Assembly (NCBI GenBank): GCA_022072505.1
Contig: JAJVHU010000022.1
Coordinates: 87,603 to 151,602, forward strand
DNA: 64,000 bases
Source: Phycisphaerae bacterium
GTDB taxonomy: Bacteria; Planctomycetota; Phycisphaerae; UBA1845
Reading direction: 5' to 3'
Program-made: the position numbers and the translations under genes
Shown: piece by piece, positions 4,791-26,050 of the stretch
Layout: each line of letters opens with the position of its first letter
Position numbering within the stretch: the first letter of the stretch is position 1
The notes under the pieces: generated by a model
The model's database searches: none
Told to the model about the DNA's origin: nothing
Seen by the model: the letters and a program-made list of their open reading frames with translations, nothing else

Positions 4791-4884
4791 CTCGTTTAGT
4801 CTGCCCCTAAATTATCTGAAAATCAAGCCTCGCGCCCCTCTGGCCGGAATGATCCCGCCGCGTTCCCTTCCTCGTGGGGCTGGT

Positions 4885-4950
4885 TTATTCTAGCCTCCTG
4901 ATTCCACGCACGCCACGTTCATCCATCCCGATCCCCCCAAACGCCCCTCT
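4885..4950 (-). repeat. Degenerate copy of gcdH stop region + leader + first codons of brnT
   Basis: Shares ACGCACG...CGTTCATCCA...AAACGCCCC with 8026-8075; encodes MRGIRRLE* vs MRRIRRLEW of brnT. Confidence 0.6.
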
Positions 4951-5110
4951 ACCTCGTGATCTGGCGGTCGCGACGGGCCTCATGGCGAAGAAATTTAAAA
5001 CGTCGAGGCGACGACCCGACCTACGAAGACTGAATAAACCTCAAAGTGTCGGCTCATGACTCGACCCACGAAGACTTGATCCGGACGGTTCGCAACGTTG
5101 GCTCGATCGT

Positions 5111-21037: not shown

Positions 21038-21080
21038 GGGCGCTATGGTGACGATCCCGGACAAATCGAGGGAGCCGCTC

Positions 21081-21494
21081 ATGGGTGAGATCAGGGTGAA
21101 GGTGAGGCTTACGAACGCGGTGGACGAGGCGCTTGCCCGACGCGGGCGAATCCCAGCCGCCGAGGTTCGCGTCTATGAAGCGGACGCTATGGTTGACACG
21201 GGCGCGGTTCGTTCAGTGATTCCAACTCACGTTCTTCAACGACTTGGAATTGAGACACGCGGGGAGCGCGTAGCCGAATATGCCGACGGTCGGTGCGATA
21301 CGGTCGGCGTTTCCGAACCCATCATTTTTGAGCTTCAAGGGCGGGATACGCTTGAGGAGGCGCTGGTGCTCGGAGATGAGGTGCTCATCGGTCAGACGGT
21401 CCTTGAGAAGCTCGATCTTCTCGCGGATTGCTCGGGTCGGCGTCTTGTCCCCAACCCCGCGCACCCGGATCAACCCGTGACCAAGGTCAAGTGA
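21081..21494 (+). CDS. Clan AA (retropepsin-like) aspartyl protease
   Basis: AMVDTGA motif and LIGQTVLE flap motif. Confidence 0.8.
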   Translation: MGEIRVKVRLTNAVDEALARRGRIPAAEVRVYEADAMVDTGAVRSVIPTHVLQRLGIETRGERVAEYADGRCDTVGVSEPIIFELQGRDTLEEALVLGDEVLIGQTVLEKLDLLADCSGRRLVPNPAHPDQPVTKVK

Positions 21495-22051: not shown

Positions 22052-22056
22052 GGAGA

Positions 22057-22161
22057 GGCAACAGGGAATAGGCGACAGGGAATAGGCAATAGGCAATAGG
22101 CAATAGGCAACAGGCAACAGGCAACAGGCAACAGGCAACAGGCAACAGGCAACAGGGAACA
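22057..22161 (+). repeat. Heptamer tandem repeat GG(C/G)AA(C/T)A x15
   Basis: Counted 15 consecutive 7-nt units. Confidence 0.95.
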
Positions 22162-22261
22162 GGGAAAAAACCTTGGCAGAAGTCTGCGTGCTGTTTCTTG
22201 ACGGTGTGCATTGCAGGAGTCACGGGGCGAAAGCGAACTTCGGGCCGGTGGGAGGGTAGAC

Positions 22262-22732
22262 ATGAATCTGTTCGACAATCCACAGAAGACCGGCGAGATC
22301 GTGCGTGAACTCACGGTCTCATACTGGATGGAGATGGAGACGATCCAGAATTACCTGGCGAACTCGGAGAACCTGGACGGCGTGCGGGCCGAGGAGATCA
22401 AGAAGGCGCTCGCCGCGGACATCGCCGCCGAGCTTGGCCACGCGACGCAGCTCGCCAAGCGCATCCGCGTCCTCGGCGGGCGCGTGCCGGGAAGCATGGA
22501 GTTCGTGGCGTCGCAGAAGTCGCTTCAGCCGCCGAAGGACTCGACCGACGTGGTCAGCGTCATCAAGGGCGTCATCGACGCGGAGGACGGCGCGATCCAC
22601 CAGTACCGCAAGATCATCCGCCTGTGCGACGGGTACGACTACGCGACTCAGGACTTGTGCATCACGCTGATGGAGAACGAGGAGTCGCACCGGCGGGAGT
22701 TCGTGGGGTTTTTGAGGGAGTATGAGAAGTAG
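22262..22732 (+). CDS. Ferritin-like (bacterioferritin/rubrerythrin-type) four-helix protein
   Basis: E..ELGHA ... AEDGAI..Y ... EESH di-iron pattern. Confidence 0.85.
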   Translation: MNLFDNPQKTGEIVRELTVSYWMEMETIQNYLANSENLDGVRAEEIKKALAADIAAELGHATQLAKRIRVLGGRVPGSMEFVASQKSLQPPKDSTDVVSVIKGVIDAEDGAIHQYRKIIRLCDGYDYATQDLCITLMENEESHRREFVGFLREYEK

Positions 22733-22777: not shown

Positions 22778-23023
22778 ATGCGGAGCTTAAGGAAGGAGAA
22801 AGTAGTCGCTACCAGAAAACGACGACGCGAGGTCGCGGAGGAGATGGAGGCTTTGCGATCGGCGCAACGCAACCAGCGCTTCGCGGCAGCGTGGCGCATG
22901 TCTGAGTTGACGCACTACATTCAAACCGGGCAGTGCGCAATGCCGCGCCTGGATCGGAGCGTCGCATCTTTGTGGAAACGTACGCCACGGGGGCGGCGGC
23001 TTATCCGGCGGATCTCCTTATGA
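22778..23023 (+). CDS. Small basic hypothetical protein
   Basis: Open frame; stop overlaps (ATGA) the ATG of the nuoD 5' copy. Confidence 0.45.
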   Translation: MRSLRKEKVVATRKRRREVAEEMEALRSAQRNQRFAAAWRMSELTHYIQTGQCAMPRLDRSVASLWKRTPRGRRLIRRISL

Positions 23024-23142
23024 CCACTGCCACCACCATCCCGCCCGAACCGTCTACATTCGCCCCGGAGGAACCCGGCGGCGATTTGTGGACGCCGCAC
23101 TTGGGCCCGTGGTGCCCGGCGACGCATACCGCCCCGCCCCGG
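23020..23142 (+). repeat. Abandoned copy of the first about 40 codons of nuoD
   Basis: MTTATTIPPEPSTFAPEEPGGDLWTPHLGP vs MTTATYNPPEPSTFAPEEPGGDLWTLNFGP at 23573. Confidence 0.95.
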
Positions 23143-23229
23143 GTGCATGGTCGCGGCGTGGAGAGTGTCATTCCGCGTCGCGGGAATAGCGTAACACAGT
23201 TGGTTCAGGCGTATCGGAGTTGAGTCGCG

Positions 23230-23427
23230 ATGATCGCGTACAAGACCATTGCCACACTCTCGAAAGACCATTCCGTCACGCTCGAAGCGTTGCCGTTCTC
23301 GGCGGGTGAACAGGTGGAGGTCATTCTTCTTGCGAGAACACCCGGCAACGGCGAGCCGACCTTCCCGCTGCGTGGTCGGCCTGTGAAATATGTGAACCCG
23401 ACAGACCCTGTCGGGGAAAAGGATTGA
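23230..23427 (+). CDS. Small antitoxin-like protein, possibly C-terminally truncated
   Basis: VTLEALPFSAGEQVEVILL...PLRGRPVKY..PTDPV pattern. Confidence 0.6.
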   Translation: MIAYKTIATLSKDHSVTLEALPFSAGEQVEVILLARTPGNGEPTFPLRGRPVKYVNPTDPVGEKD

Positions 23428-23441
23428 GGACGGGTTGTCCG

Positions 23442-23552
23442 CGTGATCCGGTGGACCAGCTCATTGCGGCGACGGCGCGAATCCACGGATGTGAGCTTGC
23501 AACAGTGGATAACCGGATCATTCGCAGCGGCGTGGTACAAACGCTGAGGTGA
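23442..23552 (+). pseudogene. C-terminal remnant of VapC/PilT PIN toxin
   Basis: RDPVDQLIAATARIHGCELATVDNRI; N-terminal two-thirds absent. Confidence 0.75.
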
Positions 23553-23572
23553 AGAACGAGACGGCATAAATC

Positions 23573-24832
23573 ATGACCACCGCAACCTACAATCCACCTG
23601 AACCGTCCACGTTCGCTCCGGAAGAACCCGGCGGCGATTTGTGGACGCTGAACTTCGGGCCGCAGCATCCGGCGACGCATACCACCCTGCGCCTCGTGCT
23701 GGAGCTTGACGGCGAACGCGTGCTGCGCGCCACGCCGCACATCGGGTATCTGCACAGCGGGTTCGAGAAGCTCGGGGAGCACCTGAACTACAATCAGTAT
23801 GTGGTCGTCACGGACCGCATGAACTACGTCTCGCCGATGGCCAACAATCTCGCGTGGCATCACGCGTGCGAAAGACTTTTCGACATCGAGATCACGCCGC
23901 GGTGCAAGGTGATCCGAACGATCTGCGCGGAGCTGGCGCGGATTCAGGACCATCTGCTCTGCGTCGGCGCTGCGGCGCTCGACCTCGGCGCGCTGACGGC
24001 GTTTCTGTACGGCTTCAACGAGCGCGAGATGATCTACGACCTGTTCGAGGAGATCTGCGGGGCGCGGTTCACGGTCAGCTACACGCGCGTCGGCGGGCTT
24101 ATGCAGGACATTCCGGCGGAGTGGCCCGCGCATGTGAAGGCGTTCTGCAAACATTTGCCGACAGCGATCGCCGATCTGGAATCGCTGCTGAACCGCAATC
24201 GCATTTTCATCGAGCGCACGAAGGGCGTGGGCGTGATCGGGCGCGAGGACGCGATCAACTGGGGTCTGACGGGTCCGCTCGCGCGTTCCGCCGGCGTGCG
24301 CCGCGACCTTCGCAAGGATGAGCCGTACCTGTGCTACGCGGCCGACTGGGACGGCAAGGGTTCGTCGGGCGTGGAGTTCAAGGTGCCGATCGCGACGGGC
24401 GGCGACGTGCTCGCGCGATACCTGGTGCGCCTGGAGGAGATCAAGCAGTCGCTGTCCATCCTTGCGCAACTGGTGGACAACATTCCGCCGGGTCCGATCA
24501 ATGTGCTGCCCGACGACAAGAAGGCGCTGCCGGACAAGCGCGAAGTGTACTTCAGCATCGAGGGCCTGATCCACCACTTCGAGACGATCATGACCAACCG
24601 GGGCTTCACGCCGCCTGTGGGCGAGGCATACGGTTGCCAGGAAACCGCCAACGGCGAACTGGGTTTCTACCTGGTCAGCGACGGCGGCAACTGCGCGTAT
24701 CGCGCGAGATGCCGCCCGCCGAGCTTCATCAATTACCAGTGCTTTCCGAAGCTCGTGGAAGGGCACCAGATCAGCGACGTGGTGGCGATCCTCGGGTCGC
24801 TGAATATCATCGCGGCGGAGTTGGACCGGTGA
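23573..24832 (+). CDS. nuoD: NADH-quinone oxidoreductase subunit D
   Basis: NFGPQHPATH, GYLHSGFEK, DRMNY, C-terminal ELDR. Confidence 0.97.
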   Translation: MTTATYNPPEPSTFAPEEPGGDLWTLNFGPQHPATHTTLRLVLELDGERVLRATPHIGYLHSGFEKLGEHLNYNQYVVVTDRMNYVSPMANNLAWHHACERLFDIEITPRCKVIRTICAELARIQDHLLCVGAAALDLGALTAFLYGFNEREMIYDLFEEICGARFTVSYTRVGGLMQDIPAEWPAHVKAFCKHLPTAIADLESLLNRNRIFIERTKGVGVIGREDAINWGLTGPLARSAGVRRDLRKDEPYLCYAADWDGKGSSGVEFKVPIATGGDVLARYLVRLEEIKQSLSILAQLVDNIPPGPINVLPDDKKALPDKREVYFSIEGLIHHFETIMTNRGFTPPVGEAYGCQETANGELGFYLVSDGGNCAYRARCRPPSFINYQCFPKLVEGHQISDVVAILGSLNIIAAELDR

Positions 24833-25501: not shown

Positions 25502-26050
25502 ATGGACGCCTTTGAGAATCTTGTGGCAACCTTGGTCCATGCCGACGGTTACTGGGTGAGGACCTCGTTCGCGGTTGAGCTTACAAAAGATGAGAAGCGT
25601 GCGGTCGACAACCCAACCATGCCCCGACCGGAGATCGACGTGCTTGCCTACAAGCCGGCGCTAAACGAGGTTCTCGTAATAGAGTGCAAATCGTACCTGG
25701 ATTCCACGGGCGTGACGCATCGGAACTTTACAGAGACGAGTAAACATCGTTACAAGTTGTTTCACAATCCGGTCCTTTGGCGCGTTGTCGGAAGGGCGAT
25801 CATCAGACAACTGGAAAAATCAGGCGCAATCCTAAGCGGCGCACGGGCGACGCTTTGTCTGGCGACGGGAAGAATACGAAATAATTCAGACCGCGAGTTG
25901 CTTCACGCCGTGTTCAGCAAGCGCGGTTGGAGGCTGTTTGACGACAGGTGGATATCCGAGCGGACGCAGGGCATGGCGAAGTCGGCGTATGTCAACGACG
26001 CGGCGATCATCGCCCTAAAGATGGCCGATCGCTTCCGCGGCGCCTCCTAG
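25502..26050 (+). CDS. PD-(D/E)XK nuclease-like protein
   Basis: EIDVLAY ... VIECKSY motif. Confidence 0.6.
   Translation: MDAFENLVATLVHADGYWVRTSFAVELTKDEKRAVDNPTMPRPEIDVLAYKPALNEVLVIECKSYLDSTGVTHRNFTETSKHRYKLFHNPVLWRVVGRAIIRQLEKSGAILSGARATLCLATGRIRNNSDRELLHAVFSKRGWRLFDDRWISERTQGMAKSAYVNDAAIIALKMADRFRGAS

Follow-up and report, generated by a model that had tools for sequence, protein, structure and literature searches.

A mosaic relic of the nuoD gene start beside a broken toxin-antitoxin cassette in the respiratory operon of a Phycisphaerae bacterium

Background

Integrative elements that carry a surrogate end of the gene they enter, such as phage 21 and e14 at icd, possess their own integrase and a defined attachment (att) core. 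Integron cassettes are small, promoterless units, often of toxin-antitoxin type, which lie in one orientation and enter at a fixed point. For restriction-modification (R-M) units, insertion that leaves a long duplication of the target is described (Nobusato et al. 2000; Furuta, Abe & Kobayashi 2010, PMC2853133), and the repeats closely match the insert-free target, for example over 45/46 and 47/47 bp, with at least 86% identity in the long-repeat cases (PMC2853133). Homology-facilitated illegitimate recombination (HFIR) has been proposed for the C-terminal displacement of Rhs and contact-dependent inhibition (CDI) toxins and for the sequential displacement of effector-immunity modules of type VI secretion systems (T6SS) (Kirchberger et al. 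2017, PMC5361080; Jackson et al. 2009 cited there). In experiments, integration of circularised DNA by a single crossover gave 109-950-bp duplications of the homologous locus, each copy being a hybrid divided at the crossover (Amarir-Bouhram et al. 2011, PMC3240628). In this study, we report the analysis of a 64,000-nucleotide stretch of a Phycisphaerae bacterium genome (GenBank assembly GCA_022072505.1, contig JAJVHU010000022.1, positions 87,603 to 151,602; hereafter the window), in which the start of the respiratory gene nuoD is present twice. The upstream copy, here called the relic, is separated from the live gene by a broken toxin-antitoxin cassette and is itself a mosaic of parts with different ancestry.

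Methods

The genome that contains the window is referred to as G000 (the window lies on its contig C7, 151 kb), four congeners as G001 to G004, and one further member of the family as G008. The relic and the live head of nuoD in G000 were compared with the four congeners in a site-by-site table. Independent copies of the region were taken from one NCBI metagenome assembly and four Logan run assemblies. Further loci of the same architecture were sought by whole-genome self-BLAST of G000 followed by inspection; the crude classifier used for 5' cases was noisy, and also picked up tandem repeats, pilin-like N-termini and intergenic repeats.

Results

The relic of the nuoD start has two substitution regimes

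An ungapped 127-nt direct repeat pairs positions 23020-23146 of the window with positions 23573-23699, the first 127 nt of live nuoD, with 101/127 identical bases (80%). The translation of the relic matched NuoD residues 1-39 with E=2.3e-12 in a six-frame search of the genome. The relic, the cassette and live nuoD are all in direct orientation, and the TGA stop of the gene that precedes the relic, orf81, is overlapped by the relic ATG at 23020 as ATGA (...TTATGACC). The initial annotation of this region, made from the sequence, had described the upstream copy as a 5' fragment of nuoD whose ATG is coupled to the open reading frame (ORF) before it, and this description stands.

The differences between the two copies are unevenly distributed. 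Over codons 1-25, the relic and the live gene differ by 8 synonymous and 2 nonsynonymous changes, exactly as had been counted initially, whereas codons 26-43 hold 1 synonymous and 10 nonsynonymous changes (Fisher P=0.002 for the contrast). In the first 51 nt of the relic, third codon positions take 9/12 differences (P=0.004). Segment B (nt 30-76) has 4/47 differences, all at third codon positions, and ends in 25 identical bases (nt 52-76), while in segment C (nt 77-127) 14/51 bases differ, 13 of them in states unique to the relic, at random over codon positions. The unchanged 25-nt block is improbable given the divergence elsewhere in the relic (P=6e-4), and it is placed at the boundary between the fresh and the decayed part, where it would mark a crossover zone. 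Since the changes in nt 1-76 are almost all synonymous, this part served until recently as a functional nuoD start under translational coupling. The remaining nt 77-127 are an older nuoD copy of G000 type that has decayed freely.

The relic is a mosaic and the live start is not foreign

The site-by-site comparison showed that the parts of the relic also differ in ancestry. In segment A (nt 1-29), the states 9T, 20T and 21C match those of G001 and G003, an agreement expected by random decay with a chance of ~4e-4. From nt 30 onward, 34T, 108T and 114C are otherwise found only in live G000 nuoD, and positions 66-67 and 102 have states otherwise confined to the group of G000, G002 and G004. The first 51 nt of the relic differ from every congener at 11-15/51 positions. 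The mosaic requires at least two recombination events, or one event and conversion. Taken together, the two substitution regimes and the mosaic ancestry mean that the relic is not a single abandoned start in simple decay.

The live start, which had initially been regarded as a new arrival, did not bear out that expectation. Its first 127 nt have 12 and 11 differences from G002 and G004 (9%), and 20 and 17 from G001 and G003, against a divergence of the nuoD body of 11-12% (G002/G004) and 14% (G001/G003). The live start is thus congruent with the gene body and has no sign of foreign origin; the live protein has 96% amino-acid identity to NuoD of G002 and G004. A search for a right-hand crossover inside nuoD, or inside glyQS (see below), with sliding windows gave no clear breakpoint.

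The earliest part of the leader follows the neighbouring genes. An ACT...ATC leader is present in the G000 relic and in G001, both of which have orf81/88 cassettes, and an ACC...AAT leader in live G000, G002 and G004, the upstream cassettes of which differ. The first ~30 nt of nuoD therefore go with the type of the upstream cassette and not with the species tree. The gene order is ferritin - orf89 - nucleotidyltransferase - 155-aa gene - nuoD in both G002 and G004, ferritin - orf104 - nucleotidyltransferase - nuoD in G003, and nuoC - orf88 - 132-aa ORF - nuoD in G001. The homology of G000 to G002, G004 and G003 ends exactly at the stop codon (TAG) of the ferritin gene. In 101 family genomes, the only close homologue of orf81 was orf88 of G001 (C139:9079-9312; 68% amino-acid identity), all others being weak. 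This orf88 also lies upstream of nuoD, with the 132-aa ORF between, and is the nearest thing to an empty site. Against the JGI metagenomes, orf81 matched only the same NCBI contig. No fragment of the nuoD head was found in G001 to G004 or in 36 further relatives, all of which have nuoD.

Five independent contigs from differing samples and assemblers carry the stretch from the ferritin-like gene to nuoD without a single base difference. One independent contig (L032 = WBZY01010692.1) agrees with the window over ~2.4 kb apart from a 469-nt patch in nuoD (24235-24703), where 61 bases (13%) differ, 46 at third positions, with 11 amino-acid changes. This patch has 55-76 differences from every sampled congener. 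It is either a recombination tract from an unsampled lineage at the level of a congener or the product of chimeric assembly. If the contig is not chimeric, recombination between lineages ~13% apart occurs at nuoD itself.

The cassette is a broken VapBC-like pair

Between the relic and live nuoD lie a 65-aa antitoxin-like gene (AT65) and a stump of a PIN toxin gene, as the initial annotation had proposed for an antitoxin and a PIN toxin without its N-terminal two-thirds; AT65 proved to be truncated as well. The start of the stump at 23424 overlaps the AT65 stop (23425-23427), which is a VapBC-like gene order. The stump encodes the C-terminal ~42 of ~130 residues, and a complete PIN domain with acidic catalytic residues is not present. 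AT65 had no Pfam or NCBIfam match, no homologue in the 101 family genomes, and matched only itself in a word-indexed search of 5.8 billion proteins. An exhaustive HMMER search found 212 representatives at E<=1e-3 (best identity 54%) of a family to which AT65 belongs; these proteins are ~71 aa long and are named only 'hypothetical protein' in their sources. The C-terminus of the family (proteins P0002-P0151) reads ...YPLRG.P..Y..PTEPV..DWE... and ends in DWEAxx; AT65 stops at ...PVGEKD, without the last ~6 residues of the family. One homologue (71 aa) has a 4-nt overlap with an intact downstream 130-aa PIN gene. Judged from these sequences, the family is probably one of VapB-type antitoxins absent from curated libraries. 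Compared with that intact pair, AT65 lacks ~6 codons and the PIN gene its first two-thirds, and a single deletion of ~280 nt explains both together. The cassette is thus a broken VapBC-like pair with a dead toxin. Neither the cassette nor its spacers have paralogous copies in the genome.

The same architecture is found at other loci

The initial annotation had further held that the process is not restricted to 3' ends, and this was borne out. Four 5'-end loci of G000 survived inspection, namely nuoD, glyQS, carB and ispG.

At glyQS (contig C51, minus strand), the relic ATG lies at ~10768 and the live start at ~9907 in plus-strand coordinates, with a DUF4258 and MqsA-like pair between. An ATG of its own opens the relic, its 7-codon leader agrees with G004 and G002 at 21/21 bases, and the next 42 codons differ from the live gene by 9 synonymous and 1 nonsynonymous changes. 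The glyQS relic was dropped as proof of a native end: it has almost no unique states and shares states found only in G004, and it could equally be an imported G004-like allele. Beyond the end of the relic, live glyQS has 4/40 differences from G003 vs 6/40 from G004 and G002, and may be of non-G004/G002 type there; if this is real, a linear fragment fits better than a simple single crossover. Immediately upstream, the glyQS relic is preceded by a DNA-methyltransferase-like gene and a 318-aa gene.

At carB (C4 105190-107230), the relic spans 66-90 nt, has a 1-nt indel and is found ~2 kb upstream of the live gene. It starts with ATG, as do G001 and G003, and live carB starts with GTG and shares at least 25 nt of upstream flank with G002 and G004. 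Between the two is a complete PIN and antitoxin pair on the opposite strand.

At ispG (C9 108197-111245), relics occur in three tiers, at 108197, 109486 and 110304, the farthest of which is the most decayed. The inner end of the nearest relic is also the exact point at which a block common to the sister genome G002 (88.7% identity) sets in. Relics of the ispG head are also present in two congeners, G001 (C104:11081-11233) and G003 (C26:62654-62830). The first 4-5 codons of ispG differ among all five congeners. Relics 1 and 2 of G000 and the relic of G001 have a few common derived bases at sites where all live genes are invariant, which hints that the ispG relics descend from each other.

At 3' ends, a 190-nt relic of nuoD itself was found in G008 (L025, G008:C26; 3083-3322 vs 4820-5059), 1.5 kb downstream of live nuoD. 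It differs from the live gene by 9 synonymous and no nonsynonymous changes. Two inserted genes precede it, and its junction with the nucleotidyltransferase gene, the next gene after nuoD in G000 and G004, is still in place. Across 25 pairs of relic and live 3' ends in G000, 198 synonymous vs 131 nonsynonymous codon changes were counted. The ratio was 55:56 in the inner third of these relics vs 72:25 in the middle third (P=3e-4), which is the same polarity as at nuoD and is as predicted by repeated re-use of the relics as crossover arms.

No border motif common to the nuoD, glyQS, carB and ispG loci was found by eye. No tyrosine recombinase (PF00589) was found on the 151-kb contig; transposases and serine recombinases were not searched.

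Features of the locus

The nuo operon, a 14-gene respiratory operon, is complete in the window, and small co-oriented genes lie at almost every gene junction. The features between nuoC and nuoD are listed in Table 1. The gene next to the relic, orf81, is single copy in the genome and had no credible Pfam or NCBIfam match. The open frame that runs from the relic ATG into spacer DNA had no family match and no paralogue in the genome except nuoD itself; it is probably translated by coupling to orf81. No terminator-like site was found on the plus strand between nuoA and nuoE, which is consistent with operon read-through across the inserts. Since live nuoD is untouched and the inserts are co-oriented, the operon can still be read through.

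Table 1. Features of the window from the end of nuoC to the end of nuoD
Feature	Position	Strand	Remarks
nuoC end	22051	+	
Heptamer tandem repeat	22056-22175		~16 copies of GGCAA[CT]A and variants; fills the interval from nuoC to the ferritin-like gene
Ferritin/Dps-like gene between nuoC and nuoD	22262..22732	+	Pfam PF00210 E=2e-17; NCBIfam Dps-like
orf81, small basic 81-aa cassette gene	22778..23023	+	TGA stop formed within the ATGA of the relic start
nuoD 5' relic, codons 1-43	23020..23146	+	Segments A 23020-23048, B 23049-23095, C 23096-23146
25-nt block GAACCCGGCGGCGATTTGTGGACGC	23071..23095 (relic nt 52-76)	+	Identical to live nuoD 23624-23648
67-codon open frame from the relic ATG into spacer DNA	23020..23223	+	
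83-nt spacer	between relic end and AT65		
AT65, 65-aa antitoxin-like gene	23230..23427	+	~71-aa family; ~6 C-terminal residues short
PIN (VapC-type) stump, 42 codons	23424..23552	+	Pfam PF01850 profile positions 89-116 of 120
Live intact nuoD, 419 aa	23573..24832	+	Pfam PF00346 E=7e-102; 20 nt after the PIN stump

Other junctions of the operon have inserts of their own. A gene for a clan-AA aspartic protease is wedged between nuoB and nuoC (window 21045-21494); this insert is also present in G003 (L024 6048-6503) and absent from G004 and G001. A 182-aa gene between nuoD and nuoE (25502-26050) weakly matched NERD/Mrr-like nucleases and, locally and also weakly, the C-terminal portion of Upx, an anti-phage protein.

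Discussion

The anatomy of the locus, the mosaic ancestry of the relic, its two substitution regimes and the recurrence of the arrangement at other gene starts are the observations for which an explanation is needed. We consider it somewhat better than an even chance that the relic is the scar of an integrase-free cassette exchange at the 5' terminus of nuoD, and that this scar was re-used as a recombination arm. The outer 76 nt and the ATGA-coupled orf81 would then derive from a nuoD allele with a functional start, whose first ~29 nt were of the type linked to the orf81/orf88 cassettes, as in G001. The inner 51 nt would be an older, decayed G000-type copy of nuoD attached to the degraded VapBC-like cassette. 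The two parts would have been joined inside the 25-nt block, as would be left by a RecA-type crossover of a functional nuoD head with an existing relic. The first relic may have arisen in one homology-anchored illegitimate event, or by single-crossover integration of DNA with the cassette and a nuoD head, and later exchanges of neighbouring cassettes would need homologous recombination only, with the relic and the conserved gene as arms.

Two histories would lead to this arrangement. In one, DNA with orf81 and a nuoD head replaced whatever lay upstream of the old relic; in the other, DNA with the old relic, the cassette and a nuoD head entered a genome with an orf81-coupled nuoD, and the relic was the left arm. 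As both give the same product, and the flanks on both sides look vertical, either side may have been the resident one. A simple Campbell integration with the crossover in the 25-nt core was rejected; it predicts a foreign live head, which is not seen.

The inner ends of the relics stop abruptly. Several points weigh against an exchange of this kind. No illegitimate junction at a microhomology was demonstrated. The ancestry inferences draw on 127 nt with few informative sites, with tests chosen after seeing the data, and the excess of nonsynonymous changes in the inner third of 3'-end relics comes from non-independent pairs, with several relics per gene. Gene conversion from the live copy could be a part-cause of the unevenness of the relic. 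No empty site, in which orf81 would directly adjoin and be coupled to intact nuoD, turned up in four congeners, 101 family genomes or a metagenome scan, and the genomes and databases searched contained no donor and no intact copy of the cassette next to nuoD.

In this planctomycete lineage, relics of gene ends may also act as portable homology arms, such that units of relic, cassette and live gene end, each flanked by two copies of one gene end, are lost, stacked or moved into a naive relative by RecA double crossover, as in an integron-like system free of a recombinase. We put this forward tentatively, as a possibility that falls short of an even chance. If it holds, the outer part of a relic would be refreshed from the recipient at each move, while the inner part is inherited and decays; toxin-antitoxin and defence genes would be loaded at the 5' and 3' termini of housekeeping genes; and the first or last tens of codons of these genes would travel with the neighbouring cassette rather than follow the species tree. 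The nuoD mosaic makes the same prediction of a refreshed outer and a decaying inner part, and the genome-wide data lean in this direction.

The first alternative to an exchange re-using an older relic is a single event, which we regard as unlikely. Here orf81 and nuoD would be the native neighbours, and a VapBC cassette with a fresh nuoD head would have come in through homologous crossover within nuoD, its other end being joined illegitimately at a point 127 nt inside the old gene, leaving the relic as an abandoned start that has since decayed. The ATGA coupling to orf81 does look like an original junction, and relic nt 30-127 hold G000-specific states. The 3' relic of nuoD in G008 keeps its usual downstream neighbour, which fits a relic in its native context, and decay at ispG is greatest in the relic most distant from the gene. 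However, a single event leads one to expect uniform decay, and not nt 1-76 with almost only synonymous changes and a perfect 25-nt block next to nt 77-127 with random ones. Furthermore, the first 29 nt have the states of G001 and G003 instead of those of the G000/G002/G004 clade, the live start has no sign of foreign origin, and the empty site that would be predicted has not turned up in the genomes and the metagenome scan named above. The initial annotation had called the relic the former native start, and had expected relatives in which orf81 is coupled to intact nuoD. Of this reading, the part that holds is that nt 1-76 behaved as a working start; mosaic ancestry and uneven decay speak against the remainder, and the relatives did not materialise.

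An insertion in situ with target duplication is less probable still. In this case ~127 nt of the recipient's own nuoD head would have been duplicated on insertion, a kind of event documented for R-M units (PMC2853133), and the copies would then have diverged, with patches of conversion. A direct repeat of >30 bp does flank a small selfish cassette without a mobility gene, and both copies carry the G000-specific states at 34, 108 and 114. On the other hand, the documented repeats closely match an insert-free target, while the copies here have 80% identity and no empty site is known. Neutral decay does not predict the synonymous bias in the head, nor the synonymous to nonsynonymous ratios of 9:1 at glyQS and 9:0 in the G008 nuoD 3' relic, and the G001-type states in nt 1-29 cannot come from the G000 gene itself.

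Site-specific integration, in which a recombinase acting in trans would have used the 25-nt core as att and brought in a cassette with a surrogate nuoD head, appears very unlikely. The perfect core lies exactly where the character of the relic changes, and the inner arm looks free of coding constraint, as an arm borne by an element would be. Against this, the contig holds no tyrosine recombinase; seven regions on six other contigs of the genome exceed the Pfam cut-off, and the two best-scoring are presumably XerC/D. The four 5' loci have no common border motif, and each identical block is the locally best-conserved piece of its gene. The cassette is single-copy, its antitoxin has no homologue in the family genomes, and the live head has no foreign look; the searches did not extend to serine recombinases and attC-like sites. 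Finally, an assembly or binning artefact joining reads of two strains can be set aside almost entirely: although one independent contig has the divergent 469-nt nuoD patch, which may be a chimera assembled from strains that occur together, five contigs from different samples and assemblers agree exactly across repeat, cassette and repeat, and two copies with only 80% identity would not be collapsed or mis-joined.

If cassettes are indeed exchanged in this way at relics of gene ends, addiction and defence cassettes would spread among related genomes without a mobility enzyme of their own, riding on copies of essential-gene ends. Both gene starts and gene ends would be open to this, and so would the interior of a respiratory operon of 14 genes. 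In such lineages, the terminal ~30-150 nt of a housekeeping gene, at its start or its end, may carry the phylogenetic signal of the neighbouring cassette, which matters for marker-gene trees and recombination scans. Pseudogene fragments of essential genes beside toxin-antitoxin pairs would be dated scars from which the order of cassette arrival is reconstructable.

Comparison with known systems

The nuoD locus resembles the R-M insertions in that a small selfish unit is flanked by direct repeats of tens to hundreds of bp that cover the end of a neighbouring gene, and that the neighbour remains intact. As in long target duplication, the repeat exceeds 30 bp and no mobility gene turned up within the insert or next to it, in a search that did not cover transposases and serine recombinases. 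No congener or family genome offered an insert-free target with which both copies align. Also unlike the R-M insertions, the copies have 80% identity with largely synonymous differences, the relic is mosaic, and it is a 5' end that has received the cargo, a toxin-antitoxin pair.

Elements with surrogate gene ends have in common with this locus a duplicated gene end, mostly silent differences and a functional target. Unlike them, the locus has no integrase nearby and the insert is only a dead cassette of ~430 nt; a cognate integrase was not found on the contig, nor a common att core at the four loci. Integron cassettes resemble it as small promoterless units, often of toxin-antitoxin type, that are stacked in one direction at a fixed place of entry. 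Unlike integrons, there is no intI on the contig and the borders are copies of host gene ends (attC sites were not searched). The relic matches the Campbell-type products of circularised DNA (PMC3240628) in its size range and its hybrid nature, although these come from a laboratory plasmid system in E. coli and a circular intermediate is hypothetical at nuoD.

The Rhs and T6SS systems share with nuoD the homology-anchored entry of modules, an old end kept as an orphan, arrays, the lack of an integrase and later spread by homologous recombination. As in HFIR, the old end stands as an orphan beside the new module at nuoD, and tiers of orphans are stacked at ispG. Likewise, the paired ends look like alleles from different lineages, with synonymous to nonsynonymous changes of 8:2 in the nuoD head, 9:1 at glyQS and 9:0 in G008; nt 77-127 of the nuoD relic have decayed instead. 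In the Rhs and T6SS systems, it is the toxic 3' tips of polymorphic toxin genes that are diversified, and the orphans are functional, as immunity genes. Unlike there, the anchor at nuoD is a housekeeping gene, the displaced 5' head is useless and the cargo is unrelated to the anchor. The recombinational logic is the same as in the known systems, and it is met here at the 5' end of a housekeeping gene in an operon, with toxin-antitoxin cargo and with a relic that has itself been recombined.

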